Both the position numbers and the translations under genes were made by a program. A DNA stretch of 64,000 bases from Torpedo marmorata (lineage: Eukaryota). Positions 6,607 to 62,606 of the stretch are shown piece after piece. Positions within the stretch are counted from its first letter, which is position 1; each line of letters begins with the position of its first letter. The stretch spans positions 157,418,001 to 157,482,000 of the forward strand of contig OZ360221.1 of the NCBI GenBank assembly GCA_977017645.1, written 5' to 3'. The notes beneath the pieces are model-generated. The model saw nothing but the letters and a program-made list of their open reading frames with translations. It searched no databases and had not been told where the DNA came from.

Positions 6607-7254
6607 ACATCCTGACAATTTTGCCATAATTGCAATTGCAAATTAAGACTGACACTTTGAGGAATTAAGCTCAGCAACTGAGCAAAATTTATCTTGCATG
6701 AGTGACTGAAGGCTAATTATGAAAGAATTATTTTTGTTAAATGATACAGTTTATACAGTATCTGCGAATCTTAGATTTTTAAAATTAAACATCTTAGCAG
6801 ATACAATGTTACATTTTTATAACAACTTAAAATGCAGCTGCTAGTAATTTTATTTGCATTTGTGTACTTTTTCCAGAATCTATAGCAGAAAAAACTATAG
6901 ATGTTGGAAATCTGTAAAATAAACAGGGAGTTTATGCTCGAGCTTTATAAAACATTGGTCAGACATCAGCTGCAACACTGCATGCTGTTCTGGTCACCAC
7001 ACTGTAGAAAATGTGATGGCACTGGAGAGGGTGCAAAGGAGATGCACCAGGATGTTGCCTGGGATGGTACATGTCAGTTATGAGAAGAGACTGGAGAGGA
7101 CTTTAGTCTCTTTTCGCTCGAGTGGAGGTGGTTATGAGGGGTCACAATTGAGATTTATAAAATTTTGAAGGGCAAATATACTGTAGATTGCAGGAATCTC
7201 TTCCTCTTCTCAGCTTGTCAAGGGTGAATAAGACTAGAGGACATAGATTTAGAT

Positions 7255-12661: not shown

Positions 12662-15600
12662 TTAGTGGAAAGCAGAAAAGTCAATGTTAATTCCATCTGG
12701 CTGGAGAGTGCCGAGACGGAATATGAGATGTTGTTCCTCCAATTTGCGGGTAGTCTGGGTGGGATAGTACATGAGGCCATGGACAGACATGTGAGTGTGG
12801 GAGTGTGACCCAGAATTGAAATGGTTGGCTACTGGGAGGTCGCTGTTGTTGCGGACGGAGAGGAGGTGCTCAGCAAAGCGGTCTCCCAATCTACGACCGG
12901 TCTCTCCAATGTATAGAAAGCCACAAAGGGAGCACCGGATGCAGTAAATAAGTCCTCTGGATGTACAAGTGAAGTGTAGTTTCACTTGAAAGGCCTGTTT
13001 GGGGCCCTGGACCGTGGTGAGGGGGGAGGTGTGGGCGCAGGTGTTGCACCTCCTGCGGGCACAGGGGAAGGTTCCGGGGGTGCGATGGGTGGGGAGGGAC
13101 GAGTGCACGAGTGAATCACGGAGGGAGCGGTCCCTACGGAAGGACGAGAGGGGAGGAGAAGGAAATATGTGTCTGGTGGTGGGATCCTGCAGCAAGTGCC
13201 GGAAATTCCGGCGGATAATGTGTTGGATGCGGAGGCTGGTGGGGTGGTAGGTGAGGATGAGGGGTATTCTATGTTTGTTGCGTCTGGGGGCAGAGGGGGC
13301 CAGGGCAGATGAGCGGGAAATGGAGGAGATGCGGGTGAGGGCTGAGTTAATGGTGGTGGAGGGGAAGCCACGTTTGTGGAAAAAGGCAGACATTTCAGAA
13401 GATCTGGAGTGGAACACCTCATCTTGGGAACAGATGCGGCGGAGGCGGAGAAATTGAGAGAAGGGGATGGAGTCCTTGCAGGGGACAGGGTGTGAGGATG
13501 TGTAGTCCAGATAGTTGTGGGAGTTGGAGGGTTTGTAGTAAATGTCGGTGGAAAGCTTGTCTCCCGAGATGGAGACAGAGAGATCCAGGAAGGGGAGAGA
13601 GTTATCGGAGATGGACCAGGTGAGTTTGAGATCGTGGTGAAAGTTGGATGCGAAGTGGATGAAGTTGACAAGCTCATCTTGGGTGCATGAGGCAGCCCCG
13701 ATGTAGTCGTCGATATACCGGAGGAAGAGATGAGGGGTCTTGCCTGTGTAGGCTTGCAGCATGGATTGCTCCACAAAGCCCACAAACAGGCAGGCGTAGC
13801 TGGGACCCATGCGGGTACCCATGGCTACTCCTTTGATTTGGAGGAAGTGGGATGAGTTGAAGGAGAAGTTATTGAGAGTAAGGACAAGTTCTGCCAGGCG
13901 GAGGAGAGTGGTGGTAGAGGGTGACTGGTCGGGTCTTTGGTCCAGGAAGAAGCGAAGTGCTTTCAGACCTTCTGTGTGGGGGATAGAGGTATAAAGAGAT
14001 TGGACATCCATGGTGAAGATGATGCGGTCCGGTTCAGGGAATCTGAAGTCATCGAGGAGATGGAGGGCATGTGAGGTGTCGCGGATGTAGGTGGGGAGGG
14101 ATTGGACCAGGGGAGAAAAGATGGAGTCAAGGTAAGATGAAACTAGTTCGGTGGGGCAGGAGCAGGCAGAAACAATGGGTCTGCCCGGATGGTTGGGTTC
14201 GTGTATCTTGGGTAGAAGGTAGAAACGGGCAGTGCGGGGGTGGGGGAGAATGAGGTTGGTGGCCGTGGAGGGGAGGTGACCGTAGGTGATGAGGTCGGAG
14301 ATGGTGTTGGAGACAGTGGCTTGATGTGCTGTGGTGGGGTCCTGTGGGAGGGGTCGGTAGGAGGAGGTGTCTGAGAGTTGTCGACTGACCTCGGCAAGGT
14401 AGAGGTCAGTGCGCCAGACCACAACCGCACCGCCCTTGTCTGCGGGTTTGATGGTGAGGTTGGGATTGTTGCGGAGAGAGTGGAGGGCAGAGCGTTCTGA
14501 GAAGGTGAGGTTGGAATACGAGAGGGGGGTGGTGAAGTTAAGACGGTTGATGTCTCGGCGGCAGTTGGAAATAAAAAGGTCCAGAGCGGGCAGCTGGCCA
14601 GGGCGGGGTGTCCAGGAAGAGGAAGAAGGCTTGAAGCTGGAGAAAGGGTCTTGGGTGGGGGGTGGAGAATCATGGTCATGGAAGTGAGCACGGAGGCGGA
14701 GGCGACGGAAGAAGAGTTCGGCATCATGGCATGCGCGGAACTCGTTGAGGTGTGGGCGGAGGGGGACGAAGGTGAGGCCTCTACTGAGGACGGAGCGCTC
14801 CGTCTCAGAGAGGGGAAGGTCGGAGGGGATGGTAAAAACCAAGCAGGGGTTAGAGTGGGGATCGGTGTTGTGGAGGGTGTTGGGGGGAGGGGGAGGGTTG
14901 GGGAGGTCAGAGGGGGGAGGTGGAGGGTGGGGGAGGTTGGAGGGAGGGGGATGGGGGGTCGGAGGGGGGAGGTGGGGGGTTGGGGAGGTGGGAGGGTGGG
15001 AGAGGGGGGTAGGGAGGGTAGCCAGAGAGAGGGGGGGGATGGAGGGAAGGGAAGGGATGAGGTCTGAGGGTTGGGGAGGAGAGTGGGGCAGAGAGGGGGA
15101 GATGGGGGTGGAGTAGGGAGAGGTGTGGGAGGAGAAGGAAGGAGTAGTGAGGGGGATAGGTAAGTGGGATCTTGTTGCGAGATGAGGACTCCAGTGGCAG
15201 TCAGCGTGGGAGGCTCCAGCAGGTAACAGTCTGTGTCGGGAGTCGGCGGTGGAGGCATCGGGAACTCTGGTGAGTAGAGGCTCGGGGTCCGGGCTGGGGT
15301 TGGCGGCCGTAGCGTCGGGAGTACCGTCGTGTCGGCGCCCGGGGTGCGGGTAGGAGCAGGCGGCTGCGGCGTTGGGAGCTTCGGTGAGTCGGCGGCCGGC
15401 GCCCAGGGTCGGTTCGGCAGCCGTCGCGTTGGGAGCTCCGGTGAGTCGGCGGCCGGGACCAGGGATCGGGTCGGTGGCTGCGGCGTTGGGAGCTCCGTTG
15501 AGTCGGCAGCTGGGGTCCAGGGTCAGGTCGGCAGCCGTCGCGTTGGAAGCTCCGGTAAGTCGGCGGCCGGGGTCCAGGTTCGGGTCGGCGGCTGCGGCGT

Positions 15601-15703
15601 GGGGAGCTCCGGTGAGTCGGAGGCTGGGACCAGGGATTGGGTCTGCGGATGCGGCGTTGGGAGCTCCGGAGAGCAGGCGGCCGGGGCCGAGATGGGGATC
15701 CAC
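12662..15703 (-). CDS. Penelope-like RT with Cys linker and GIY-YIG endonuclease (frame stays open to the 5' junction at ~15755)
   Basis: IKPADKGGAVVV, FYLLPKIH, GRPIVS, MDVQSLYTSIP, GVAMGT, RYIDD, LPFLD. Linker CARRRCNTC (Neptune-type). LIYCIRC..YIGETGRRL..RFAEH and GIN. Confidence 0.93.
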   Translation of the reverse strand: MDPHLGPGRLLSGAPNAASADPIPGPSLRLTGAPHAAAADPNLDPGRRLTGASNATAADLTLDPSCRLNGAPNAAATDPIPGPGRRLTGAPNATAAEPTLGAGRRLTEAPNAAAACSYPHPGRRHDGTPDATAANPSPDPEPLLTRVPDASTADSRHRLLPAGASHADCHWSPHLATRSHLPIPLTTPSFSSHTSPYSTPISPSLPHSPPQPSDLIPSLPSIPPLSLATLPTPLSHPPTSPTPHLPPPTPHPPPSNLPHPPPPPSDLPNPPPPPNTLHNTDPHSNPCLVFTIPSDLPLSETERSVLSRGLTFVPLRPHLNEFRACHDAELFFRRLRLRAHFHDHDSPPPTQDPFSSFKPSSSSWTPRPGQLPALDLFISNCRRDINRLNFTTPLSYSNLTFSERSALHSLRNNPNLTIKPADKGGAVVVWRTDLYLAEVSRQLSDTSSYRPLPQDPTTAHQATVSNTISDLITYGHLPSTATNLILPHPRTARFYLLPKIHEPNHPGRPIVSACSCPTELVSSYLDSIFSPLVQSLPTYIRDTSHALHLLDDFRFPEPDRIIFTMDVQSLYTSIPHTEGLKALRFFLDQRPDQSPSTTTLLRLAELVLTLNNFSFNSSHFLQIKGVAMGTRMGPSYACLFVGFVEQSMLQAYTGKTPHLFLRYIDDYIGAASCTQDELVNFIHFASNFHHDLKLTWSISDNSLPFLDLSVSISGDKLSTDIYYKPSNSHNYLDYTSSHPVPCKDSIPFSQFLRLRRICSQDEVFHSRSSEMSAFFHKRGFPSTTINSALTRISSISRSSALAPSAPRRNKHRIPLILTYHPTSLRIQHIIRRNFRHLLQDPTTRHIFPSPPLSSFRRDRSLRDSLVHSSLPTHRTPGTFPCARRRCNTCAHTSPLTTVQGPKQAFQVKLHFTCTSRGLIYCIRCSLCGFLYIGETGRRLGDRFAEHLLSVRNNSDLPVANHFNSGSHSHTHMSVHGLMYYPTQTTRKLEEQHLIFRLGTLQPDGINIDFSAFH
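15290..15700 (-). repeat. ~63-bp GC-rich coding tandem repeat (about 6-7 units, 21-aa GAPNAAAADPxPGPGRRLT)
   Basis: Recurring GCGTTGGGAGCTCCGGTGAGTCGGCGGCCGG at 63-bp period; repeats visible in the translation. Confidence 0.9.
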
Positions 15704-17446
15704 GTGGAGGGTCGCAGAGGCTGCAGTTTCAAGGGAGGCAAGCTTACGGTTCCTACCCTACCGTTCACTGTGTAGATCCTACCCATTTTAAACTTCCCAA
15801 AATCCAACACTTCTTTCTGCATTAAATCCCATCAACCATTCCTCTATCCACCTCCCCGACCATCAAGTTCCTGCTGCAACCTTTGGCAACTGTCTTTACC
15901 ATCTACAATACCAGACACTTTCATTTCATCCGCAAATTTGCTAATCTCATTGTTAAACTTGAAGAGCCTTGTCACATTTGTTTCTTCGGTGCTTTTCTGA
16001 CAATTCCTACTCATCTCTGAGCTGTGATGATCTAGAGTAATAAGTGTGTAATTAATAGATTTTTGTTTCATAAACCACTCAAATGAAAACGAATAAAATT
16101 AAGAATCATGATCAGAGATTATTTCTTGCAGAAAGCCATGGTGTGAGAAAGTGGATCTCAGTTCTTTGATTGTGAATTTTTTAGCACTGCAGACCTCAAT
16201 ATAGTTCATTTTGTGTGGTAGAGTACAAAGAAGTTATCAATCTCCTTTTCAGAATACTCAATGTTTACTCTTTGGAAAGGTGTCATTGGCTATTTCTAAC
16301 ACTGCAAATGTGTTATCACTGGCTGTGTTCTGTATTTTTCACTTGTCCTTCATGCTTTTGAACTGTAAGGGCAGGCAGCCCATCCAGTTTTCCCCTTCCC
16401 AGCACAGAGGTGCTGAGGCAATAAGATAGTTCACAGAGAGATGGGATCAAACCTTTAAACTTTACTGGTCAAGTGGTTTCGTGCTATGCTGGGATGTATC
16501 TTTACAGTAAGCAATAACAGAAGTGTCTCTTAATTATGTTGCTTATTTTGGGTGAGACACTTTGATCGCTTGTATCTTCGTGCAATATGTTCCAAAACTA
16601 ACTAAATACAGCTGTATAAATGGGTGTGCAGGGCCATAACCTGGTGGTTTGTTTATACACAGTTGTATGCACTAACGACAGAACAGAAGCAGCCTAGGGT
16701 TAGGAACATGTTTTTGGAAAACATTCTCAGAATCTTACATTAATTATTTGTGTCTGTTCAGATTGGAATAGACTGCATTGGTGAATTAACTGTAGACAGT
16801 CATTTTGCTACATATAAATTTAGAGGCAACAAGCGGGCATGTCCTCTATATTGTAATTCAACCTCACTTTTTGCTCCCAAAGTTGTAACTTAAAATTCCA
16901 TTAAAATAATCAGTTTTGACATTATTCATGGGTTTGGAAATATTCTTTGCTTAGAGTAAGGGTATAACTATTCCTCAATGAACAGAACATTTCCTTCAAA
17001 ATATAACCTGTTCTATAAATTTTCATGTGTTGGTAAATACTCTTTGCTTAGAGTAAGGGAAATGCAAGTATTTCATAATGAAAGAAAATGTCCTTAAAAA
17101 AACAGCATAGCGAAGATAGAGTGCATGCATTGTTCAGGAACTATGTTCTGATTTTGTGAGCTTATTAATAAATTACACAGAACTGTACTACATGCTACAC
17201 CAGAAAAATACGCCAGGGTTTCAGAAGTGAAACATTCGCTCTCAAGGCCTTTCATGATTTTGTTTTTCAAATTTGACAACTACATTGTTCTCGTCTTCAT
17301 TCTGTAATTCCAATTTATGCACTTTACAAAGCTGATCTGCTGGTAGCAAAGGATTTATCAAAAAGTTTAAACTTCCCATTAAAGAACATTCTCTTAACTG
17401 GAATATTATTGCAAACTTACACTGAAAATGAAAATGATTTAATGAA

Positions 17447-21101: not shown

Positions 21102-24100
21102 GGAGCGGGGGGTGTCACGTGATGACGTGAGGTGGAGACGGGTTATTACACCTCTCCCATCGGATTTAATTAAAAATAGACGAAAAGAAAGTTAGAGTTA
21201 TTAAGATAAAGTTAAAGTGTGGAGGAAAGGTTCAGGGATGTCCAGTAAGAGAATGAAGGAAGGGAAATTAAAGAAATCAGTGTTAAGGGAAAGTTTAGGT
21301 CAGGAGAAAAATCGGCCTACCTTGGTGTTGGAGCCTCGGGAACAAGCTCCTCTCCCCCCGCGGAAGACACAGAAGAAGACGGCGAAGGTACCTGGAGCAC
21401 CAACGCCGCCCTCCCGTGGAACTGTGATTGTCGTGCATAATTCCAGAAAAAGAAAAAAATTATATATAAATGGAGGTTTAACTCTTCTTTACTAAAGAGA
21501 GTGGATTTTTGTAAATATATAAGAAGAGAAATCCAAGAATTTTTACAGATTAACACGGATTCCATGGAAAACAAATTTATTATTTTGGATGCTTTGAAGG
21601 CTTAGAGGTCAGATAATAAGTTACTCAGCAAAAGTTAAGAAGGAAAATATTCAGGAATTGGATAATTTGGAGAAGGATCTACAAAAGAAGAGATCAGAAG
21701 AAAAGAAGAAAGATTTAATTGGGAAAAAGTTATATTATAATACGTTACAAACATATAAATTGGAAAAACTCATTGAAAGGACTAAGCAAAGGTATTATGA
21801 ACTGGGAGAAAGAGCTCATAAAGTTTTAGCCTGGCAATTAAAGAAGGAACAAACCTCTAGAACTATAACGGCTATAAAAAAGAATTCTAAGAAAATAACT
21901 TATAAACCGCGAGAAATAAATGATTCTTTCAAAGATTTTTATTTGAATTTATATACATCTCAAGCCGATAAAGATGATTCTAAAATTAACAAATTTTTAT
22001 CCAAAATTAAGATGCCCAGGTTAGGTACACTTAGTAAAGAATCTTTAGATTCACCATTTACGATGAGGGAAGTCGATGGGGTTCTTAGTTCTTTGACAAG
22101 TGGGAAATCTCCGGGGGAGGATGGTTTCCCATCAGAGTTTTATAAGAAGTTTAAGGACTTATTGATTCCTCCTTATATGGAGGTGTTAAAACAAATAACG
22201 GAAACCCATTCTCTACCGGAATCCTTCACCAATGCATTAATAACAGTTATACCGAAAAAAGATAGAGACTTGTTGAGAACAGAATCATATAGACCAATAT
22301 CGTTGTTAAATGTGGATTATAAAATAATGGCAAAAATTTTAGCAAACAGAGTGGCTAAGTTCTTACCAGACTTAGTCCATAGAGATCAGGCAGGCTTTAT
22401 TAGAAACAGATATTCAAAAGATAATATCGCTAGATTAATTAGTCTAATAAACGTGGCACAAAAAAGAGAAGAACTGTCATTAGTATTAACATTAGATGCC
22501 GAAAAGGCTTTTGATAGATTAGAGTGGAATTATTTATTTAAGGTACTGGAAAAATTTGCTTTTGGAAATACATTCATTAATTGGATTAAAACTATATATA
22601 AAGAACCGTCTGCTAGAGTGGTCACAAATGGTCAAATATCTTTAAAATTTTCCTTAACCAGGTCTACTAGACAAGGTTGTCCTTTATCGCCAGCATTGTT
22701 TATTTTAGCAATAGAACCTTTAGCCAAATTAATTAGACAAGATAGTAAGATTGCAGGTATTAAAGTTGGTAAGGAAGAACACAAAATTAGTTTGTTTGCA
22801 GATGACGTATTGATATATATGACAAAACCTATTAATTCTCTAACACAATTGTCTGTTTTATTGAAGGAATTTGGGGAAATATCTGGTTACAAGATTAACT
22901 CGGATAAAAGTGAAATTATGCCTTTAACACAAGGGGACTATAGTGATTGTAAAGAAATTACACAATTTAAATGGTCAAAGGAAGGAATTAAATATTTGGG
23001 AACAAAGATTGATACAAAATTATCCAATTTGTATAAATTAAATTATTTACCATTATTTGTGAATATAAAAAAAGATCTGGAGAGTTGGAAGGATTTACCT
23101 ATAACTCTAATGGGAAGGGTAAATTGTATTAAAATGAATGTTTTTCCGAGAATTCAATATCTTTTTCAATCAATTCCTTATGAAATCCCTCAGAAATTTT
23201 TTAAGGATTTAAATTTAATTATAAGGACATTTTTGTGGAAAGGAAAGTTGGCTAGAGTAGGAATGGAGAAATTAACCTGGAATTATGAAATGGGTGGTCT
23301 AAAGCTTCCTAATTTTCAATATTATTATAAAGCAGCCCAACTAAAATTTATTAACGTATTGTTTGATTTAGGGAAGCTCTCTGCTTGGATGAGAATAGAA
23401 TTAAATAATATAGGAGAGGATTTGAAAGAAGAAGTCATTTATAAATGGAATTCTAAATTATTATTAACAAGAGGGAAAAATTCTCCTATTTTTAGGCACT
23501 TGTTAGAAATATGGAATAGAGTGGATAGAGAAGTAGGAGCGAAAGGATCAATTTCTCGAAGAATGCCTCTATATCAAAATGAACTTATTCCATTTACTGT
23601 CGATAATCAACTATTTAAAATTTGGTTCCAAAAGGGAATTAAGGAAATAAATGATTGTTTTGAAGCTGGTAAATTTATTACGTTTCAAAGAATGAAAGAT
23701 AAATTTAGTATAGAAAATAATACAATCTTTGCTTATTATCAAATGAGGGCTTTTTTAGGGGAAAGGTTGGGCCGCGGTTTGACCTTACCAAGACAGACTG
23801 AATTGGAATTATTAGTTACTAATGGAGGTGTGCCTAAATTTATTTCTCAAATGTACAGATTGTTACAGAGGAAACTTCCTAAAACAGGAATTCATAAATC
23901 AAGATTAAATTGGGAAAAAGATTTGAATGTAACAATAGATGAAGAACACTGGAAAAAATTATGTAAACAAAGTATGATGAAGATTATTAATTGTTAGATA
24001 TAGATTGGTGCAATATAATTTTTTTCATCAACTATATTTAACACCTAAAAGACTAAAGAAATTTAATCTGACATTATCTGGTTTATGTTTTAGATGTAAT

Positions 24101-36720: not shown

Positions 36721-38143
36721 TCCCAAATCATTATAATTTATGGTGAGATATATGATGTTAAAACTCCATCTGGTTCACTAATAATCTTGAGAGTAGGAAA
36801 CCTGTTGCCTTTATCTTTCATGTGATAGCAAAACAACAGCAGTGTGGCTAACTCCTTGAAAACATCTGGCAAACCATTCATTTCATGAACAATTTGGGTG
36901 GACAATAAATATTAGTTCTCCAAATGGGAGCCACGTCTTGTGAAAGAATATGTAAAAAAAAGTGGTTAATTAGGAGCAATGAACAATCTGCTGGAGGAAC
37001 GCAATGGGTTGAGCACCTCAGAGGGAGAGAAAGAATTGTCGCTATTTTGGGCTGGACCCTGACATCAAAACTTCAAATAATTAGAGTTTTGAATCATGTT
37101 GGTTAAGTTAGTAATTGTTATTTTGATAATTATACTATATTAAACAGTGCATAATATGGACAAAATTTTGAAGCTGTTTAGTGGAAAATAATGTTTTGTT
37201 ATTTTCATTCTAATTAACTTATGAGAAAGAAAATGCTTTCCCAACCATCCTTGTTTAATTTTGTTCTTTTTAAATTTTAGATACAATAGAAGTTAATAGT
37301 CTAGTGTTTCACAATTTAAGAATGAAATCTAATCTGAATCAAACATGAGTAATCATTGTATTTTGTTTAGAATCTTTGCTTTGACCTTCATCTTTAAACT
37401 CTTCTGCTTTATTAATCATGTGTTTCCTGAATCAAGTGGGATATTTTGGAGCAAAGAAAATTGTTCTGGGACTGAAGGAGCGTTATGTGCACAGCAGACA
37501 TGACCAGATGACAAATAACCCAGCATGACAGCCAAGGTTCATCCAGCTGGTCTGGGCTGCACGAGGTGATTGATGGTGTTGATGTTCTAAATAGGCCTCA
37601 GATATGCTCTACCCAAGAATCATAATGCAGTCCTTCAGCTTAAACTACAGAGGCAGAGAAAGTAAGCATGTTCTCAGCATATGGTAGCACTGTGGATGGT
37701 GTCACCATAAGGGTTAGCGTTATTCTGGCTGTCTGGTTTGTTTCTGTCACACAAAAGGTATTTTCTCAGTAACAATGAACAGAATCATATGGTAGATGTT
37801 CATTCATACTGTAGGTTAATCATAATTCACGGTTCTGCAGATTATTTTCTCAGAAAAATAATGAACAACATTTGAAACTATGATATTAATAATTTCACAT
37901 CATTACATTTTAAAAATCTAGATTGAATATTTGAACAAAATTAAAGAGTGTTCTGCATGGAAGTTATATATAGAATTTTTGTGTGTATAGCTGTGTTTTA
38001 TCAGTGTGTCTCGATTTATTGCATTTAGTTTCATTTCCGATTTTGTGTATTTGGTGTATTCAGGTTGAAACAGATTTGCCAAGAGATATAGTCAAGTATG
38101 CCTCACTTAATGGTGTGGATGGAAAAGTCCTAGCTCTTTAATG

Positions 38144-39139
38144 CATCGGAAGACCACAGTCAGTACGAATTGGAAACAACGTCTCCTCCTCACTGATTAT
38201 CAACACAGGCGCACCCCAAGGATGCGTGCTTAGTCCACTGCTCTACTCGTTATACACCCATGACTGTGTGGCCAGGCACAATTCCAATGCCATCTACAAG
38301 TTTGCCGATGACACCACAGTTGTCGGCAGAATCACAAACGGCAATGAGGAAGTGTACAGGAGGGAGATAGATCAGCTCGTTGAATGGTGTAATGGCAACA
38401 ACCTTGAGCTCAACGTCAGCAAAACCAAGGAGATGATTGTGGACTTCAGGAGGAAGTCAGGGGAACATGACCCAGTCCTCATCGAGGGCTCAGTCGTGGA
38501 GAGGGTCAAGAACTTCAAATTCCTGGGTGTCAACATCTCCGAGGATCTGTCCTGGAGCATCCATGTTGATGCAATCACAAAGAAGGCTCGTCAGCGGCTA
38601 TACTTTGTGAGGTGTCTGCAGAGATTCGGTATGTCACCAAAGACTCTCGTAAACTTCTACAGGTGTACCGTGGAGAGCATTCTGACTGGTTGCATCACTG
38701 CCTGGTATGGAGGCGCCAACTCCCAGGACAAGACTAAACTCCAGAGGGTTGTTAACTCGGCCTGTGACATCACAGGCACCAAACTTCACTCCATCGAGGA
38801 CATCTACATGAGGCGGTGTCTTAAAAAAGCAGACTCTATCCTCAAAGACCCCCACCACCCAGGCCATGCCCTCTTCACTCTGCTTCCATCGGGAAAAATG
38901 TACAGGAGCCTAAAGACGAGCACTCAACGGCACAAGGACAGCTTCTTCCCCGCTGCCATCAGATTCCGAATAATCAATGAACCAAAGACACTGCCTTACT
39001 TTTTGTGCACTATTGTTTATAATTTTTTATAGTAATGTCGTAAGATGGTTAATATGAATGTTAATTGCACTATGATGCTGCCGCAAAACACCGAATTTCA
39101 TGACTTGTTCATGACAATAAATTCTGATTCTGATCCTGA
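38144..39139 (+). mobile_element. Rex1/Babar 5'-truncated copy (RT C-half, ORF 38226-39032)
   Basis: Closely similar to 3370-4357; (TTCTGA)n tail. Confidence 0.92.
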
Positions 39140-51184: not shown

Positions 51185-51752
51185 TATATATATATGGTAC
51201 CTTTCATGTCCTCAGGTTATTCCAAAGTGCCTTATAGCCAATGAAATACTTATGAAATCCAGTCACATGTAGTATGATAGCTAAATTTCCGATGGGTTAA
51301 CAGGCAGCTTACCCGATTTTGACATGTTGGTTGAGGTATAAATGTCGGCTGGACAATGTGATTTCTTTGAACTATGCCGGGGGATCCTTTGCTTGCACGA
51401 GAGAGGCAAGTTTATTTAAAAACCTCATCTGAAGTAAGTCACCTCCAACAATACTCCATTCCCTGAATACTGAAAATGCCCTTCATCTTTAATCTGAAAT
51501 GTTTGCTCTGTTTCTCTTTTCAGAGATGCTATCTTACTTGCGAAGTGTTTCCGTTATCTTCTATTTTCTTTTAATTTCTGACTTCCTAAGTGTTTCTATT
51601 ATCTTCTGTTTTTTAAAATTTCAGATTTCCAAAATCTGCACCTTTTTTTATTTTCAAGTATTATCCCCCGAGATTTTTTGCTTAAGTTTCTGCAATGAAA
51701 TTTAGACCCACAACCATCTGAGTCAGAGATGAGAGTGCTACCAACATGAGCA
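51185..51752 (-). mobile_element. Ancient Deu-domain SINE with an old PLE tail inserted at ~51480-51660
   Basis: Reverse head GCTCATGTTGGTAGCACTCTCATCTCTGACTCAGATGGTTGTGGGT at 51705-51752. Deu-like TTGGTTGAGGTATAAAT and AACCTCATCTGAA..CACCTCCAACA. Confidence 0.6.
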
Positions 51753-52101
51753 GATGAGACTTCGATTCATTCATTAAATTAAATTAATTATTTATGATTA
51801 CTTGGATTAAAATCTGCAAACTGAGACAAATGTCAACTGCTGCTGGAAGATTATCAATTCAATGAAAGATGCACTATGATCTGCTCAGTACATGGGTCTT
51901 CCAATGTAAAAAGATTCCATCACTGAATGCTGTCAACTGACACATTCCAAGGTTCAATAATTTGTTGTGCTGAGGGATTCAATGAAAGTCAGTGCAGCTG
52001 CCACAGAGGTTTTGTCTGGAAGGACCATGGTGTAGGGTCCTGCCCCCACAGAATGCTGAGGAACTGGGACATGTGTAACAACGTCTAAAATCATTCATGG
52101 G

Positions 52102-52636
52102 TGTAAGAGCCAAAGGCTCGTGTCTTACCTTAATCGCGGCATTCCGATGGGCCCAGCGGGTTTCGGAAGAGTCACTGAGATTAGTAGGCCATGCTAGACC
52201 TATTGAGTACTGGTGCATGCGCAATGGGGAAGTGGGTGGAGTATGCGCGGTGGAGTATGCGCGGTGGAGTATGCGCGGTGGAGTATGCACGGTGGAGTAT
52301 GCGCGGTGGAGTATGCATGGTGGAGTATGCGCGTTAATCAGTGAAGAAGTATATAAGAATATGGCAACTTAGAGGAGGGTGAATGAGACCGTTTAAAGGA
52401 AGTTATAAAGAATCATTTTAAAGACGTTTTAAAGAATCGTTATTAAGCATCGTTATCAAGAATTGTTTATATTTTGTTAAAGAATATATTTAAGTCATTG
52501 AAGATTGCTACAAGTCATCGTGTGTAAATAAAGTTTTTGAACCTATTGGACTTGTTAGTAAATTAATTGAAACGTGTCATGAACAAGTGTCTCACTTCGC
52601 CTCCAAGTGACTATTTGTTGGATTGAAGTCACTATA
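52102..52636 (+). repeat. 5' LTR of the BEL-derived element (535 bp), with a 14-bp GGTGGAGTATGCGC minisatellite
   Basis: TGTAAG...ACTATA; TATA box at ~52350 and AATAAA at ~52527; direct repeat of 61803-62376. Confidence 0.92.
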
Positions 52637-53093
52637 TTTTAGTCAATGAAAGATTATTGTTTGGAACAGAAAATTGAAGGAAAGAAGATAGAATAAGCTC
52701 TCTGTGCTTTGGATTGATATTTAAAATAAAATGGTGGCCATCTTGGAGATGCCTCGAGTTTGGGGCAGTTTGTAATCCACATCCATCTGCCATGAGTAAC
52801 AGCCAGAAAGGGATTTAGAGCTTCTAATCTTATAGTAAAGTGTCCTATAAATACGTTGGAGAAACCATTTCTTGAAAATCAGCGGTATTAGTGACGAATT
52901 CTGTGGTGGAAACTTGTTTGTGAATAGCAGCACATTACAGTCATATAAAGTGGTAGGCATAAGTCTGTGGACTCCTTCTGTGTATCTTCGGCAAGTTTGA
53001 TCACAGATTGGATTTGCTGCCGCTAGTCCACTGGGACTGTTGATTTGGCTAGTGTTTTGTATGCTCGAAGGACGGTGGAACAAGACGAGTAAA

Positions 53094-53591
53094 ATAGCCG
53101 CAGCAGCCGCTGATGCAGCAGCCACTGATGTTGCTGTTGAGGAACAACATATTGAAGACATGAAGGTTGTGGAGCTCAAGGAAGAATTGAAGCGACTGAA
53201 ACTAGATAAAAGTGGAAATAAAAATGTTCTCATTGTAAGACTGAAGCTGGTAATGGAAGAACAGGCGGCTTCGGTTGATGGGAATGAAGAAATTGCAAAC
53301 TCATTGCAAAAGACAACGACTGAACATGAAGACAGCAACGTTGAAATGGCTGAAAATGTGTCACCAAATGATGAAGAAAACAAAGAGGATGAAGATGAAA
53401 AGGATGTACAATTCGAATTGGAGAAAGAGGTAAGTAAGAAGACAACATCTGACCTGCAAGATGAAATACAAGCATGTGACAGTGTCTCAAATGTTGAAAG
53501 CAGGAGCAGCAAACAAAGTTCTGATTCAAGCTCCAGAGTTTCTCGTACTTCAAGTTCTGCATCGTCACGTACAAAGGTTGAAGTTGACTTG
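53094..53591 (+). pseudogene. BEL gag N-terminus with SAP domain (~53151-53255), interrupted by Gypsy
   Basis: IEDMKVVELKEELKRLKLDKSGNKNVLIVRL fits the SAP consensus, followed by an acidic tract and DEIQACDSVSNV. Reads in frame into ATLLAQQK at 58322 once the Gypsy and one TSD are removed. Confidence 0.8.
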
Positions 53592-53839
53592 TGTGGTAAA
53601 CCACTTTATATGTATTGTGGCCTGAGGCAGGTATGACCATGACCTGTCTGTCTGTCCCGGTGACCCCTCCCCTTTTACCTGGAATAAAGGCCTTGAGCCC
53701 GCAACTCCTCCCCCAGTTCCGGGACAATCCAGCAGGGATCATCAGGTCAAGTCATAGTCAGCCCTGGCTTGATTCTGCTAATAAAAGCCTGTTAATTCCT
53801 GCACTTCTAGACTCGTGTTGGTTATTGATAGGTACGTCA
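53592..53839 (+). repeat. Gypsy 5' LTR
   Basis: TGTGGTAAAC...GGTACGTCA; direct repeat of 58069-58316. Confidence 0.96.
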
Positions 53840-53870
53840 ATTTTATTAGCAGTTTCAACGAAAACGATCA

Positions 53871-56800
53871 ATGGAAAATTTGTTGAAGCCAGACAAGCTG
53901 GACATCGACCCCCTGGCCCAAGACGCTGCCAGCGATTTTGAACTTTGGCAACGCTGCTTCTTAGCCTACATGAGATCGTCTGGAGCAACTACGGACGAGC
54001 AGAAACTTGATATCCTCATGTCCAGGGTAAGCAAGCGAGTGTATGGCGCCGTCAGAGACTGTAAGACTTTCGATGATGCCTCGGTCGCCCTCCAAACGCT
54101 GTACCTGACGCCTGCGAACGAGATTTTTGCAAGGCACCGGATATCGCAGCGGTACCAGCGACCCGGAGAGTCGGTCTCCGAGTATATCCAAGACGTGATG
54201 TTAATGGTGCGAGCGTGTGCATGTCGAGCCCTGACGGCTGAGCAACACTCCGAGATGCTGGCAAGGGACACTATTATAAAAGGGATCAGGTCAGGCTACA
54301 TCCGCCAGCGATTGCTGGAACACGCTGACCTGACCCTGAAATCGACTGTCCAGAACATTCTGAATCTGGACTCAGCCCTGAAGAACGCTGACGCTATGCA
54401 GGCTCAGCCTTGGATCGCCCCAGCCGTCAGCCCTACAAGCAACGCGACCGCCGCTGCCGTCTACCGGGACCCGCTTGCCGCCGCCTACGCTACCCGTGAG
54501 TTGGCCGCTGCCCGAGAGCCCACCGCTACCTGTGAGTTAACCGCTGCCGCTATCTCCCGGGAGCCCGAGAAGTGCTACTTCTGCGGGCTCGACAAGCACC
54601 CGCGCAAGCGCTGCCCGGCCCGAGACGCGACTTGTTCTAGCTGTGGCAAGAAAGGCCACTACGCTAAGGTCTGCCGCTCCAAGTCGCGCACGGGTCCGAG
54701 CAGCGCCGCGTGCGAGGTACGGGAGCGGCCATCTTCCTCGACTCCACTTCCGGCGGAGACCTCGTGCGAGGTCTGGAGGCGGCCATCACGGCGCACCGCA
54801 CGTCCGGTTCCTAGCGGCGCCACGTGCGACGGGAGGGGGCGGCCATCTTACATGACGTCACTTCCTGCGGGGACCTCGTGCGAGGACTGGAGGCGGCCAT
54901 TTCCGATCGCTACATTTCCGGCGCGGCCATTTTGTAATCTCACCGCAGCACTTCCAGCACTTCCAGCTCCACCCTTCCATAGCGACACATATGAGCTACG
55001 GGAACTACCAACGGATCAAGACGTCTCGTCGGATCAAGACTCCGTCTCGACCCTCTCGTCGGATCAAGACTCCGTTTCGACCCTGGCATCCGTGACGCTG
55101 GACCAGAGCGCGCCCCATCAACTGTCCAGGTCGATGATGGACATCTTCGTTGAGGGGCATAAGACCACCTGCCTGTTCGACACAGGCAGTACTGAAAGCT
55201 TTATTCATCCGGACACTGCCCAGCGCTGTGGCCTCACCATTGTTCCGGTAAGCCAGAGGGTGGCCATGGCGTCTGGAACGCACACAACAGACATCCGGGG
55301 GGGTTGTGTGACGAATATAGTGGTACAGGGCACGGAATACCGAGAATTTTCAATGTTAATCATGCCTCGTTTGTGTGCTCCTGTACTGCTGGGGTTGGAC
55401 TTCCAAAGCCACCTGCGTAGCGTCACCATGCACTACGATGGGCCCCACCCCCCGATCGTAGTGACTAACCCCCAATATACTAACACGCCCCAGACTACCT
55501 GTGGTCTCTCCACGCTAAAGACCCAACCCCCGCCACTCTTCGCCAACCTGACCCCTGACTGTAAGCCCATCGCAACTAAAAGCAGGCGATACAGTACAGG
55601 GGACAGGGCATTTATTAAGGCGGAGGTGCAGCGTTTACTGGGGGAAGGGATCATTGCACCCAGCAATAGCCCCTGGAGAGCTCAGGTAGTGGTGGTGAAG
55701 AACGGGGCTAAGAGCCGGATGGTGGTGGACTATAGTCAGACCATCAACCGGTTCACACAACTGGACGCCTATCCGCTGCCAAAGATCGCGGATATGGTCA
55801 ACCAGATTGCCCAATTTAAAGTGTTCTCCACCATCGACCTTAAGTCGGCGTACCATCAGCTCCCGACCCGCCGGGAGGACCGAGTATACACCGCTTTCGA
55901 GGCGGACGGCAGATTATTCCATTTTCTGCGCGTCCCCTTCGGGGTAACAAATGGGGTATCCGTGTTCCAAAGGGAGATGGACAGGATCATTGACCAGTTC
56001 AAGCTCACTGCCACCTTCCCGTACCTGGACGACATCACCATCTGTGGTCATGACCGCCAGGATCACGATAGGAACCTTCGGAAGTTCTTACAGGCGGCCG
56101 AGACGCTGAACCTCACTTATAACAAGGAGAAATGCGTGTTCGGGACTACCCGACTCGCTATCCTGGGGTGCGTCGTGGAGAACGGGGTGATTGGACCCGA
56201 CCCCGACCGCATGCGCCCCCTGTTGGAACTTCCGATCCCCGTTACCCCCAAAGCACTCAAACGATGCCTCGGGTTTTTCTCCTATTATGCGCAGTGGGTC
56301 CCCAACTACTCGGACAAAGCCCGACCCCTCGTCAAGTCCACCAAGTTTCCCCTGGCACCGGAGGCACGTGAGGCTTTCGACCTCATAAAAGGGGACATCG
56401 CCCGAGCAGCGATGCACGCGGTGGACGAGTCGGAACCTTTCCAGGTGGAGAGTGACGCCTCGGACTTCGCACTGGCTGCTACCCTCAACCAGGCGGGAAG
56501 ACCGGTAGCGTTTTTCTCCCGCACCCTTCAAGGCCCCGAAATTCGGCACTCCGCGGTAGAGAAAGAGGCCCAAGCCATTGTCGAGGCTGTTCGGCATTGG
56601 AGGCACTATCTCGCCGGGAAACATTTTACCCTGCTGACGGACCAGCGCTCCGTCGCGTTCATGTTTAACTGCCAGCAGCGGGGTAAAATTAAAAATGACA
56701 AGATCATGAGGTGGAGGATAGAACTCTCCACCTATAATTACGACATCATTTACCGGCCCGGGAAGCTCAACGAGCCCCCTGACGCTCTATCCCGGGATCA

Positions 56801-56930
56801 TGCGCCAGCGCGCAGATCGACCGATTATACTCCCTCCATAATGACCTCTGCCACCCAGGAGTTACCAGGCTGTTCCATTTCATTAAAGCACGGAACCTGC
56901 CTTTCTCCCTGGACGAGGTCAAGACCATGA
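53871..56930 (+). CDS. Gypsy Gag-protease-RT-RNase H polyprotein; true frame shifts at ~56795
   Basis: Two knuckles CYFCGLDKHPRKRC and CSSCGKKGHYAKVC; LFDTGS; SPW, DY, DAYPLP, DLKSAYHQ, PFG, YLDD; SDASD, EKEA, TDQ, DALSR. Confidence 0.94.
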   Translation: MENLLKPDKLDIDPLAQDAASDFELWQRCFLAYMRSSGATTDEQKLDILMSRVSKRVYGAVRDCKTFDDASVALQTLYLTPANEIFARHRISQRYQRPGESVSEYIQDVMLMVRACACRALTAEQHSEMLARDTIIKGIRSGYIRQRLLEHADLTLKSTVQNILNLDSALKNADAMQAQPWIAPAVSPTSNATAAAVYRDPLAAAYATRELAAAREPTATCELTAAAISREPEKCYFCGLDKHPRKRCPARDATCSSCGKKGHYAKVCRSKSRTGPSSAACEVRERPSSSTPLPAETSCEVWRRPSRRTARPVPSGATCDGRGRPSYMTSLPAGTSCEDWRRPFPIATFPARPFCNLTAALPALPAPPFHSDTYELRELPTDQDVSSDQDSVSTLSSDQDSVSTLASVTLDQSAPHQLSRSMMDIFVEGHKTTCLFDTGSTESFIHPDTAQRCGLTIVPVSQRVAMASGTHTTDIRGGCVTNIVVQGTEYREFSMLIMPRLCAPVLLGLDFQSHLRSVTMHYDGPHPPIVVTNPQYTNTPQTTCGLSTLKTQPPPLFANLTPDCKPIATKSRRYSTGDRAFIKAEVQRLLGEGIIAPSNSPWRAQVVVVKNGAKSRMVVDYSQTINRFTQLDAYPLPKIADMVNQIAQFKVFSTIDLKSAYHQLPTRREDRVYTAFEADGRLFHFLRVPFGVTNGVSVFQREMDRIIDQFKLTATFPYLDDITICGHDRQDHDRNLRKFLQAAETLNLTYNKEKCVFGTTRLAILGCVVENGVIGPDPDRMRPLLELPIPVTPKALKRCLGFFSYYAQWVPNYSDKARPLVKSTKFPLAPEAREAFDLIKGDIARAAMHAVDESEPFQVESDASDFALAATLNQAGRPVAFFSRTLQGPEIRHSAVEKEAQAIVEAVRHWRHYLAGKHFTLLTDQRSVAFMFNCQQRGKIKNDKIMRWRIELSTYNYDIIYRPGKLNEPPDALSRDHAPARRSTDYTPSIMTSATQELPGCSISLKHGTCLSPWTRSRP

Positions 56931-57967
56931 CCAGCAGCTGCCGAGTCTGTGCGGAATGCAAACCGCAGTACTACCGCCCCGACAGAGCACAGCTGGTCAA
57001 AGCCACTCGCCCGTTCGAACGTCTCAGTATAGACTTCAAGGGCCCCCTTCCATCCACGAACCGCAATGTGTACTTTCTTAATATCATCGATGAGTACTCG
57101 CGGTTCCCCTTTGCCAGCCCCTGCCCAGATACCTCGGCGGCGTCGGCTATCAAGGCTCTCCACCAGGTTTTCACCGTGTTCGGGTTCCCCAGCTACATCC
57201 ACAGCGACCGGGGGTCCGCGTTCATGAGTGGTGAGCTGCGACAGCACTTGCAGACCCGAGGCATCGCTACCAGCAGGACCACGGGGTACAACCCACGGGG
57301 GAACGGACAGGTGGAGAGGGAGAACGCCACAGTATGGACAGCGACACTACTGGCCCTCAAAGCAAAAGGGTGGCCAGTGGCTCGCTGGCAGGAGGTTCTC
57401 CCGGACGCCCTCCACTCTATACGATCCCTCTTATGTACCGCCACTAACACTACCCCTCACGAACGTATCTTTTCCTTCCCCAGGAAATCGACCACTGGAA
57501 CTACACTCCCTGCCTGGCTGACGTCCCCGGGGCCCGTGCTACTCCGCAAACATCTTCGGAGTAGCAAGTACGAGCCCTTAGTCGAGAGGGTGCAGCTGAT
57601 CCACGCGAACCCGCAATACGCGTTCGTTGTTCTCCCCGACGGGCGGGAGGACGCGGTGTCAATACGGGACCTGGCGCCTGCAGGAGCGTCTGAAGAGGTC
57701 CCCGACAGCGGAAACACCGGGTCGCAGCTGCCCCCTCCGGACCATCAGCCTCCCAGCACGACGTTGTCTCCGTCACAGCTGGTCTGGCCACTAGCCAGGC
57801 AGGAGGTGAACCACCCTACTGTACCTACTCCCACTCCACAGCCACTACCACCTCCGCAGGTACCACAATTTCCTACCCGTACCCTCATTCCACAACCATT
57901 ACCATCACCGCTGACGCTACGCAGGTCACGGCGGCACATCCGGCCGCCGGCGAAACTCGACCTGTAA
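56796..57967 (+). CDS. Gypsy integrase, frameshifted continuation (track ORF 56927-57967)
   Basis: HHCC: LHNDLCHPG..CRVCAEC; catalytic IDFKGP, HSDRG, NGQVEREN; C-terminal LRRSRR..RPP. Confidence 0.92.
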
Positions 57968-58068
57968 ACGAAGATAATTGTATATATTCTATGTATATGT
58001 GTTTTTTTTCTCTCCCTACGGTATCCACTTCACCCCCCCGTCGGACTTGTTCTAAAAGAAGGGGTGAA

Positions 58069-58316
58069 TGTGGTAAACCACTTTATATGTATTGTGGCCT
58101 GAGGCAGGTATGACCATGACCTGTCTGTCTGTCCCGGTGACCCCTCCCCTTTTACCTGGAATAAAGGCCTTGAGCCCGCAACTCCTCCCCCAGTTCCGGG
58201 ACAATCCAGCAGGGATCATCAGGTCAAGTCATAGTCAGCCCTGGCTTGATTCTGCTAATAAAAGCCTGTTAATTCCTGCACTTCTAGACTCGTGTTGGTT
58301 ATTGATAGGTACGTCA
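58069..58316 (+). repeat. Gypsy 3' LTR
   Basis: Preceded by the PPT and followed by TSD ACTTG. Confidence 0.96.
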
Positions 58317-58321
58317 ACTTG

Positions 58322-60545
58322 GCCACTCTTCTTGCGCAACAAAAAACGCTTAAGGATAAACATATTTTAGAAGGACAGGAGGAGCAGCTAAGGCAAAAGG
58401 AGGAGCAGCTAAAGCAGCAGCTAGAGCAGCAGCTAAGGCAAGAGAAGGAGCAGCAAAGGCAGAGAAAGGAGCAGAAGGAGCTGGAAGCAAACATTACTAT
58501 TGCCAGGGCAAAAAAAAGGTACCAGAAGGCTCAATGGTATCTGGTGCTCGGAGTAAATTATCTAAAGTGTGCGATGATAAGAAGTTATATTTTAAAAGGG
58601 AGCCACAAAAAAGGAAACCCACCAAAAAGGAAGATGTTTTAGTACCAAGGGTACAAGACTTGCAAATACAAGGACAAATCCTTCAAGAGCATAGTGTTAT
58701 CGAGTCACATGTACCAGTGGTAACATCTAAAGACAAAGCTGCGGCTTGGGTTCGGTCAAATGATGCAGCTCCCTTGGCATTCGAGTCAAGCATCAGAAAT
58801 ATGGAAGAAACTACACCAGTAAGGTTTCCAGATACATTACCTGTAACAAGAGGCGGTGAACAGAGCAATGTATTGTCATCCATAGGAAGACAAAATGAAA
58901 TTGCTGCATCATTGATTCAGTTACAGTCTCTCTCTTCTTTGCCCAAGAAAGAGATTCAAACTTTTGATGGAGATCCACTTTAGTACCAAGCGTTCATGAA
59001 ATCTTTTAGATGCAATATTGAAAATAAATGCCAAGACCCTGATGAATGTCTTTATTATTTGGAAATGTTCACAAAGGGACAGCCAAGAGAACTTGTAAAG
59101 AGTTGTCAACATATGTCCTCAGAAAGAGGATTAGACAGAGCTAAGTCTTTACTCGAACAACATTTTGGCAACAAGCATCGAATTGCTTTAGCTTATATGG
59201 ATAAAGCTCTTAAATGGACATCAATAAAACAGAATGATGTAAAGGCTCTACAAGCATATACTCTCTTTTTAAGAGGATGTTGTAATGCCATGGAAGATAT
59301 CGATAATATTCGTGAGCTTGACGTGCCTGATAATATGCGAATCATCTTAGATAAATGACCTTACAAGTTGTGGGATAGATGGAGAAATTTGGCTTGTGAT
59401 TTACAAGAAAATTACGGTCAAAGAGCTACCTTAAAGGACTTGGTAAATTTTCTTGAACGACAGGTGTACATTGAAACAGTTCCAATATATGGAAATACCA
59501 GAGACAATTCAATGGGGAAAAAGATGTAAGGAGGTCAAACTCACAGCCTAGTCTGAAATTGAAAAGGAGTACTTTTGCTACTAATGTGTCAGTTATAAAA
59601 AAAGAAAAAGATAAATTAAATAAGGAAAAAGAAAGTTTGACTAATGAGAAGAGTTGTTTGTTCTGTAAAGGTAGACATGCTTTGGAAATGTGTTTACGGT
59701 TGGAAAAGAAGGAACATAATGAGAAGATCACTTTCTTAAAGGAAAATGGAGTATGTTTTAGCTGTCTGTGTAAAGGGCACATCAGTAAAAACTGTGAGAA
59801 GTGAATTAACTGTAACGTATGCAATTTGAAGCATCCTAGAATGTTGCATATCCATTAAAGAAACAAGGAATTTAAAAATGAGCAAACAGAAACAAAGGAA
59901 ACAACAGAAAACAAGGTTATAATATCGGTTCAGACAAGTGGTCTTACCGGGGCTGGTGTGGATAACTGCAAACTTTCAATAGTGCCTGTACAAGTCAAGA
60001 CCAAGAACGGGAATGCAACAGTACATACATATGCATTTCTCGACCCAGGCAGTACTGCATCTTTTTGCACGGAAGGACTAATGAATAAACTTAATATTCA
60101 AGGAAGAAGGTCAAGAATTATGTTAAAAATGATGGGACAAGAAAAGGTCGTTGAAACCAGCATTGTTTCAGGCTTAGAGGTTGTTGAATTGGATGACAAA
60201 ACATTTTGTGATCTTCCAAGTTTATATACTCAGAAGACTATGCCTGTGCATGAAGGAAACATTCCGCATCAAAATGATTTCCATCATTTGTCTTATCTGT
60301 GGAAGGTTTATTTACCTGAAGTTAACACTGAGATAGAAATGCTGATTGGTTCAGATGTGCCAAAGGTTTTGGAACCACTAGAAGTAATACAGAGTAGAGG
60401 GAATGGACCTTACGCTGTTAGAACTAAGCTTGGTTGGACAATCAATGGACCATTGGAAAGAAATAATGATATTGCACAGGAACAGTTAGCGATAAAGATT
60501 AACAGGATTTTGGTTGTGAAAGTTGATGAGTTAAGGGAAGAGCAA
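58322..60545 (+). pseudogene. BEL/Pao gag core (DUF1759-like), three zinc knuckles and aspartic protease (DUF1758-like), with several stops and frameshifts
   Basis: LPKKEIQTFDGDPL*Y..F, LYYLEMFTKGQPRELVKSC; CLFCKGRHALEMC, CFSCLCKGHISKNC, CNVCNLKHPRMLH; TYAFLDPGSTASF, MLIGSD, GPYAVRTKLGW. Confidence 0.9.
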
Positions 60546-60570
60546 AAGATTGTGAATAAGAAGGTCACTT

Positions 60571-61488
60571 TTGAAGAAAAGAAAACAGATCAATGTGAAA
60601 ATAAATCAAGGGTATTTAAAACAACTGAAGGAATTATTTTCATCAGAATTGGATGAAAATGAAGTATTAGAAGATGTTGCAGATAATACTATTGATTATT
60701 CATGTGTAATTGAATCAGATACAGGAATAAAACAAGTGACTGAGAACAAAGTTGAATGTAGATTTTGTAGTTCAGAGGTTACAGCAGACAAAGTCAATGA
60801 AGAAATGTTGCAATGTGATGTAAAACTGGAGAACACAGAAAATTGTGCTGATGGAATAAAGAAGAATGTGAATGATCATTTAATGCAATTGAATTCAGAG
60901 AACAAAATGTTGAAAAGGGATTTGGAAATATTGGATAATCATGAAAAAAGTAAACAGAAAGATTTAATTGTAAATAAAATTCGCAAAGTCAGAAAGTGGA
61001 TGAAAAGAATAACTGCTGAAGAAATAAATATAGTTATTGAAGAAAGAGATTCAGCATTATTAAGATGTAAAAGGTTGGAGGAAGAGATTAATATTTTGAA
61101 AGAGAACAAGTTATTGCTTAATAACACAAAACAGTTGTTTATAGAAAACAATCAAGAATGTAAATTGAAGGTTCAGCTACTAACAATGCAGAAAGAAAGT
61201 GATATTGCATTGCAGCAATGTAACAAGCAAGATGAAGAAATTCAAAAATTTCAAGTTCATCACAGCAGGGTTGACAATAGAAGTACCAATGTATCACATG
61301 ATATTTTCACGTCAGATCAAGTTATTAATTTCTCGGAAGGAACTGAGACTGAATTGAAAGTTGCAAAATTGGATTTGGAATTGCAGGAAAAGGCAATAGA
61401 AACCAAGGTGGTTAAAGAGACTCGTTTATTAAAATCGAGAGGATCAGATAAATATTCAAAGTATTCAAAGTTCAAATTATTCCTATGA
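60571..61488 (+). CDS. Coiled-coil ORF replacing pol, containing a MIPOL1-like segment (~60961-61266)
   Basis: IVNKIRK..KRITAEEINIVIEERDSALLRCKRLEEEI..ENNQECKLKVQLLTMQ..ALQQCNKQDEEIQ resembles vertebrate MIPOL1 as recalled. It lies inside the LTR element, so it is not the host gene. Confidence 0.75.
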   Translation: MKKRKQINVKINQGYLKQLKELFSSELDENEVLEDVADNTIDYSCVIESDTGIKQVTENKVECRFCSSEVTADKVNEEMLQCDVKLENTENCADGIKKNVNDHLMQLNSENKMLKRDLEILDNHEKSKQKDLIVNKIRKVRKWMKRITAEEINIVIEERDSALLRCKRLEEEINILKENKLLLNNTKQLFIENNQECKLKVQLLTMQKESDIALQQCNKQDEEIQKFQVHHSRVDNRSTNVSHDIFTSDQVINFSEGTETELKVAKLDLELQEKAIETKVVKETRLLKSRGSDKYSKYSKFKLFL

Positions 61489-61802
61489 GAAACGACGTGC
61501 TGAAGAGGTACCTTGTGTTAAATTCAAAAAGAAAAACTGTATCTATTTTGTCTGAGGAAGAGTTGAGGTTTACTGGTCAACGTTCTAACTCAAAGATTCT
61601 GGAGATAAAAGAACTTTGATAAGTACAAACTGATTGTACATAGGTTACAGACTTTTATTGATCCAGAGTTATGGTAAACTCTGGTCTTGTGAAGAAAGAA
61701 GATTTGTATATTGTTTGACTGTTATATTGTTATTGTTATTTGTAATTGATTGTGTAATTATTATTTAAGACATTGTGCCTCATTATAATAATTAGGGGTC
61801 AG

Positions 61803-62376
61803 TGTAAGAGCCAAAGGCTCATGTCTTACCTTAATCGCGGTGTTCCGATGGGCCCAGCGGGTTTCGGAGGAGTCATTGAGATTAGTAGGCCGTGCTAGAC
61901 CTATTTAGTACTCTGTGCATGCGCGAGAGTGCCGACTGGTGCATGCGCAGTGGGGAAGTGGCTGGAGCATGTGCAATGGGGAAGTGGGTGGAGTATGCGC
62001 GGTGGAGCATGCGCGTTGGAGTATGCGCGGTGGAGTATGCGCGTTAATCAGAGAAGAAGTATATAAGATTATGGCGACTTAGAGGAGGGTGAGTGAGATT
62101 GCCATAGCTTTCATTGACCGTTGAAAGGAAGTTATAAAGAATCATTTTAAAGAAAGTTTAAAGACGTTTTAAAGAATCATTATTAAGCATCGTTATCAAG
62201 AATTGTTTATATTTCGTTAAGGAATATATTTAAGTCATTGAAGATTGCTACAAGTCATCGTGTGTAAATAAAGTTTTTGAACCTATTGGACTTGTTAGTA
62301 AATTAATTGAAACGCGTCATGAACAAGTGTCTCACCTAGCCTCCAAGTGACTATTTGTTGGATTGAAGTCAATATA
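61803..62376 (+). repeat. 3' LTR of the BEL-derived element (574 bp)
   Basis: Preceded by AATTAGGGGTCAG (PPT-like); TGTAAG...AATATA; followed by TSD ATGGG. Confidence 0.92.
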
Positions 62377-62454
62377 ATGGGTATATTGTTTAAGGAGGAA
62401 ACATGACACATTTAAGAAAATACATTGATTAATTAATGCGTTTAAGAAAATGTA

Positions 62455-62606
62455 ATGATGTTTATTGTCATACACATACTGTAAGTACAGTGTACAGAGA
62501 CACTGAAATTCTGACTTGCTGCAGCCCAGTAGGTACATAAAATGCACCAACTACAATAGTGTACATTAAATCAACCCGGTACAGAAAGAGATAATAAATA
62601 TAAAGG
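62455..62606 (-). mobile_element. 3' UTR of the older Rex1-like subfamily (as at 118-300), target of a younger Rex1
   Basis: TTTATTGTCAT..CACTGAAATTCTGA..AGAAAGAGATAATAAA.ATAAAGGAT shared with 138-257. Confidence 0.6.

Follow-up and report, generated by a model that had tools for sequence, protein, structure and literature searches.

The window, by which we mean the whole 64,000-nt stretch analysed and to whose positions all coordinates refer, holds a non-autonomous BEL/Pao element at 52102–62376, with all features on the forward strand. Its long terminal repeats (LTRs), defined by pairwise alignment, are fixed by a 5-bp target-site duplication (52097–52101, with identical bases at 62377–62381) at 52102–52636 (535 nt, TG...TA, with a 14-nt tandem array) and 61803–62376 (574 nt), and differ outside the array at 19 of 425 aligned sites. 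A motif scan places a putative TATA box at 52350–52356 in the 5' LTR and another (TATATAA) at 62060–62066 in the 3' LTR. The poly(A) signals are at 52527–52532, the sole AATAAA of the 5' LTR, and at 62267–62272 by motif scan, and the 3' LTR is preceded by a short polypurine tract (AGGGG) with four further bases (61794–61802), a motif common to relatives at the same site. Both LTRs terminate in TATA (52633–52636 and 62373–62376) instead of CA, and in this BEL lineage the integrase may have become less strict in recognizing element ends. TA in place of CA also closes the LTRs of the related loci L004, L019, L021, L034 and L068, and the L004 LTR likewise starts with TA.

The 5' part of gag (53001–53591) carries a SAP domain at its start (53151–53246; Pfam PF02037, E 1.3e-09) and is interrupted by a young Ty3/Gypsy element (53592–58316), recognized by its LTR pair and its protease, reverse transcriptase (RT), RNase H and integrase domains. 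The Gypsy LTRs (53592–53839 and 58069–58316) are 248 nt long and identical, a 5-bp duplication flanks them (53587–53591 and 58317–58321), and other copies of the BEL family have an empty site there (contig loose ends at 53585). Beyond the insertion, a three-frame reading recovers the remaining gag with three Cys-His boxes and the protease at 58322–60600, with stops and frame changes. This region is 54–63% identical to BEL/Pao polyproteins carrying PF03564/PF05380. The protease region has 71 homologues, at most 71% identical, most of which carry PF03564/PF05380/PF18701, and nearly all of the named ones come from bony fishes.

Where RT, RNase H and integrase would be expected, there is a 310-codon open frame (60556–61488) that has no Pfam match and no counterpart among the 71 BEL proteins; it is charged and coiled-coil-like. 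We class the element as non-autonomous because the part downstream of the protease shows no resemblance to RT, RNase H or integrase, nor any similarity to full-length relatives; RT and integrase were found in relatives of the element. What places it in BEL/Pao is the LTR pair with its target-site duplication and the triple Cys-His gag with a BEL-type protease, in an element that lacks RT, RNase H and integrase downstream of the protease as well as the 18-nt host-tRNA site of the ICTV description. It shares with ICTV Belpaoviridae the LTRs, the 5-bp duplication, the three Cys-His boxes, the protease and the short polypurine tract, and its relatives add PF03564, PF05380, RT and integrase. In contrast, the ICTV profile has host-tRNA priming from an 18-nt tRNA-Arg or tRNA-Gly site (PMC8742986) and the insect BEL element Achilles a tRNA-Tyr site (in the part of PMC4580426 available), and neither site is present here.

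The position just past the 5' LTR is instead complementary to the element's own LTR. After an unpaired 5-nt spacer (52637–52641, from the LTR alignment), an 11-mer starting with GT (52642–52652) is the exact reverse complement of a segment of the 3' LTR (62108–62118), as the first-pass annotation had stated and sequence comparison confirmed. It was also right that no TGG directly follows the 5' LTR, as a tRNA-type site would have it: the first TGG is at 52662, 26 nt downstream. The segment, a candidate self-primer, ends in AC and is followed by CG (62119–62120), as it is in all 13 contiguous-type families examined. It starts 48 nt past the first base of the 3' LTR TATA box, in agreement with the earlier placement just downstream of that box, and ends 148 nt before the AATAAA at 62267. 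Of 20,000 dinucleotide shuffles of the 3' LTR, 21 gave a match of at least 11 nt in the 20 nt that follow the LTR, and the duplex energy of segment and 11-mer is −13.0 kcal/mol.

The annotation had further described the segment as deleted from the 5' LTR of this copy, which is true in part. A 19-nt gap between 52386 and 52387, equivalent to 62097–62115 of the 3' LTR, does hit the segment, but removes only 8 of its 11 bases. We infer that this difference reflects loss from the 5' LTR and not gain by the 3' LTR, because a segment of this kind precedes the same ACCG motif in all relatives and because a contig of another copy carries a one-letter variant of it. This copy is thus defective both in its enzymes and in most of its 5' primer bases, so the family would rely on the enzymes of a helper. 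The family is abundant, with 47,861 contigs from one sequencing run aligned to the element. None of the 40 best-supported differences from other copies that were listed falls in 52632–52656, which we do not count as evidence, and we give no weight to the low contig depth over 52330–52415. At the edge of the gap (52386/52387) there is a 2-nt microhomology, and the gap ends 3 nt short of the predicted cut site, which could be fortuitous or a remnant of processing. A short inverted repeat (62071–62076/62101–62106) sits downstream of the TATA box and ahead of the primer segment, and hairpins resembling it are seemingly present in L010, L016, L020 and L069 as judged by eye. An Rfam search of 51500–62600 gave no match.

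To compare relatives, we drew 75 BEL loci from a scan of metagenome contigs and four more from a later scan of genome contigs; scans of viral contigs returned neither BEL nor Gypsy relatives. To place the LTR ends, we used repeats, a first pass guided by the complement, a motif list independent of complementarity, and inspection by eye. Left out of the 75 were 9 near-duplicates, 8 loci with a boundary whose LTR part was missing or half present (L007, L019, L023, L048, L075, L038, L051 and L056, the last three with the donor half visible), and 36 without a located boundary, 17 of which had less than 60 nt upstream; 10 of these 36 were read by eye, and 9 were matches starting deep in the polyprotein that were not. 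Two of the four later loci lack a 5' end, and L076 and L078 were usable. The families testable for pairing, with the LTR covered, number 23 (this element and 22 relatives) and span 29–56% protease identity to the element. The boundary was set by motif in 15 of the 23, several of them first spotted through the complement itself, and is independent of motif and complement (repeats, target site or assembly break) in 8. L076–L079 are animal BEL elements in contigs filed as bacterial genome bins, that is, host contamination. In L026 (6541–6937), an LTR with a primer-like segment has a complementary word about 20 nt upstream, at a place with no recognizable boundary between LTR and leader.

The comparison of related BEL families that had been proposed as a check bore out the pairing. 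An exact own-LTR complement of 10–12 nt is kept in 21 of the 23 families, using 18 distinct 10-mers; the exceptions are L013, which reaches 9 nt, and L022, with one mismatch in 12. Among the independently bounded families, 7 of 8 reach at least 10 nt. When words and LTRs were crossed between families, at least 10 nt was reached in 9 of 506 pairs, all between near-identical words, and no permutation in 100,000 attained the observed sum of match lengths. Leader windows taken further downstream reached 10 nt in 6 of 3,450 cases. TGG is absent from the first 8 nt after the LTR in all 33 located boundaries. A word starting with GT lies 0–6 nt past the LTR in 33 of 33, a count biased by the many boundaries found with a motif that requires GT. 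The segment can be located without reference to the word, as the sole [GT]ACCG site, in 8 of 13 contiguous-type LTRs. L076 and L078 each show an 11-nt fit, with a word shared with L036, and so add no new words. The spacer is 0–6 nt in relatives, and other copies of the family carry insertions and deletions within it. Judged across these sequences, own-LTR complementarity is a trait of the lineage and not a quirk of one copy.

The helix itself has a defined shape. Positions 1–10 contain 228 Watson–Crick pairs out of 230 and no G-U pair, figures that are partly built in, as segments were chosen by exact match and frequent G-U would have shortened the runs. Positions 1 and 2 are invariant, each of positions 3–10 is filled by three or four types of pair, and by positions 13–14 no more than 3 of 23 families still pair. 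At the other end, no family extends the helix past the first G toward U5, such that the end is fixed at the same G in 23 of 23, which is what a defined primer end would predict. Paired at that first G, a primer with AC as its last bases would point into U5, the direction of minus-strand synthesis. The fixed helix end is also the sole pointer to a putative RNase H cut after the paired segment.

In 7 of the 23 families, the complement reaches 10–11 nt only when a GTAAG...AG intron of the LTR is taken out, at the GT-AG junction. The 3' LTR of L042 is the exact intronless form of the 5' LTR of L049 (over the 25 nt that flank a 536-nt intron on either side; L042 6912–6948, L049 137–672), and the 5' LTR of L042 holds the 3' part of the intron. 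L068 likewise matches the junction of L054, so in both cases one family has LTRs with the intron alongside LTRs that exactly lack it. Pairing at the junction only, together with intronless LTR copies, suggests that pairing is an RNA-level event in the region that is reverse transcribed. In a protease tree with 36 rows, each of the two labels was clustered, with two changes, and none of 500 shuffles gave so low a value; the tree was midpoint-rooted only and so gives no order of intron gain and loss, and L060 was too short to enter it. The element of the window falls among contiguous families with 2–6-nt spacers. A spliced origin of its own segment, which is preceded by AG, was tried and rejected, as the only donors found were weak GC sites that add 2 nt. 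A contiguous match in L041 was discarded because it sits in flanking DNA, and a TGG-like word in L036, L037 and L041 was rejected as a boundary because it lies inside the LTR intron.

The segment has the TATA box upstream of it and the poly(A) signal downstream. In 8 of 14 contiguous-type families a TATA-like box was found 41–64 nt upstream of the segment, and the usual spacing from TATA box to transcription start is about 30 nt. The predicted start would thus lie 10–35 nt upstream of the segment, which probably places the segment inside the transcript and would make the primer longer than the 11 bases of Tf1. In folds with the start 0–15 nt upstream, the helix had a mean pair probability of at least 0.78 in 8 of 12 natural 5' ends and of at most 0.04 in the other 4; with 25 nt upstream, it was at most 0.25 in 10 of 12.

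We consider it likely that minus-strand synthesis in this BEL/Pao lineage is primed by the element's own RNA, independently of tRNA. The first-pass annotation had read the locus in this way, and covariation over 21 of 23 families and 18 words now supports that reading at the level of sequence. A segment of 10–12 nt, located near the start of the LTR's transcribed portion, would pair with the word just past the LTR, the RNA folding back on itself before it is cut. Cleavage directly after the last bases of the segment (AC) would free a 3' end, whose extension would copy the spacer and U5 into a short DNA that could then jump to the 3' repeat. Plus-strand copying of the primer would rewrite the binding site in each cycle and so maintain exact complementarity. 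The cut, RNase H as its enzyme, the priming and the re-templating are all proposed by analogy with Tf1. A more specific scheme is possible, and we put it forward tentatively: a large aquatic branch of BEL/Pao would have a mechanism of its own, with a primer internal to the LTR, a site-specific cut after an invariant AC and a site re-templated in each cycle. In its deeper branches a host-spliced LTR intron would ensure that only spliced RNA is copied, and the contiguous form in the window would be an intron-lost state.

Self-priming has been described for Tf1/sushi elements and predicted for the plant elements Tcn1 and TAR (PMC6317226, PMC4600332, PMC5341516, PMC6934838 and PMC3601003, in the excerpts consulted). 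Tf1 and Tf2 of Schizosaccharomyces pombe, Tj1 and the Tf1/sushi group have no tRNA site and pair an approximately 11-nt post-LTR site with their own LTR-derived RNA (PMC4600332, PMC5341516, in part). In Tf1, the transcript's first 11 bases anneal to the site and RNase H cleaves between bases 11 and 12 (from the accessible portion of PMC7175516). The BEL families resemble this type in having a 10–12-nt own-LTR complement directly after the LTR and compensatory change in it, in a lineage outside that of Tf1, as BEL/Pao is a separate superfamily and not a Ty3/gypsy chromovirus. They probably also differ from Tf1 in primer location, since the segment seemingly lies 10–35 nt after the predicted start and not at it, and in sister families splicing builds the segment. 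Additionally, a simple ungapped test found no pairing of post-primer bases with the LTR end, another difference from Tf1. TAR (Ty1/copia) and Tcn1 were predicted to self-prime by the same criterion, an LTR complement of at least 10 nt located 0–5 nt after the LTR (PMC6317226, in part); unlike the BEL families, they belong to other superfamilies and kingdoms, and no splice-built primer is described for them in that part.

The explanations that compete with self-priming fare differently against these data. In favour of chance, ten of the 11 bases of the word recur at 51859 and 51979, with four matches in the window against 0.43 expected. Yet chance is scarcely credible given the rarity of such a match in shuffles of this copy's LTR (21/20,000), and it is refuted by the family comparison (0/100,000 permutations). 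The two 5'-flank occurrences (51859–51868 and 51979–51988) both encode F-N-E codons in one cysteine-rich frame and were taken as coincidental. A tRNA half or other small host RNA might instead prime, with the LTR match incidental; half-tRNA priming exists in Ty1/copia lineages (PMC6317226, in part), and a GTCA(A/G)AAA core is common to many of the words. However, 18 different 10-mers fit their own LTRs, some only across a splice junction, and since one host RNA cannot track 18 changing words we regard this as very improbable. No tRNA was found in the window or in the fetched loci.

A more serious contender is a long-range helix of structural or regulatory role, in strand transfer, packaging or translation control, with priming by another route. 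It would suit a segment that probably lies internal to the transcript and not at the cap, and as the segment is also present in the 3' repeat, 5'–3' pairing would be possible. Such a helix should nevertheless tolerate G-U pairs and ragged ends, which is not what the 0 of 230 G-U pairs and the end fixed in 23 of 23 families show, and it would not account for occupation of the exact primer position, 0–6 nt past the LTR, at 33 boundaries of 33 that lack TGG; we therefore think it unlikely. Within self-derived priming, the primer could also come in trans or from the 3' repeat, supplied by a partner RNA or by solo-LTR transcripts. The abundance of the family and the 4 of 12 natural 5' ends for which no foldback is predicted would be consistent with this sub-case, but strict family-specific covariation is most simply kept in cis and Tf1 works by foldback (PMC7175516, in part), which makes it quite improbable. 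Self-priming by foldback in cis remains our preferred account.

To our knowledge, BEL/Pao is the least studied of the LTR superfamilies. The open-access literature searched yielded no report of BEL self-priming; term searches of PMC554778, PMC3118150, PMC3286476, PMC9094657 and PMC8220671 returned nothing on it in the text covered, and within that text PMC554778 and PMC3118150 never mention PBS or tRNA. If self-priming held for a broad branch of BEL/Pao, tRNA-free priming would occur in all three superfamilies of LTR retrotransposons, whether invented repeatedly or retained from an old state. Such elements would evade regulation by tRNA fragments, and they would be missed or misplaced by annotation software that requires a tRNA site. 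The AC end, being fixed, amounts to a base-precise prediction of the RNA cut, making the priming step directly testable.

The nested Gypsy had been noted as showing a similar arrangement, and in sequence and logic it does. One spacer base after its LTR, and again with no TGG, a 12-mer (53841–53852) is complementary by sequence comparison to a segment of its own LTR (53775–53786); none of 20,000 shuffles reached 12 nt, and the helix has a mean pair probability of 0.94–0.99 in folds of the natural 5' end. Its position differs, as the segment covers the second AATAAA (53780), and the pairing would fit self-priming as well as a masked 5' poly(A) signal. Masking was rejected as a cause of the BEL pairing, where segment and signal are 148 nt apart. 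Relatives of this Gypsy were found neither in the 79 fetched loci nor in the viral-contig scans, and the Pfam search reported no chromodomain family on its integrase frame. Further RT frames, apparently of non-LTR elements, are present elsewhere in the window at 1555–4206, 7228–8157, 12662–15757, 21598–23997 and 38142–39032.
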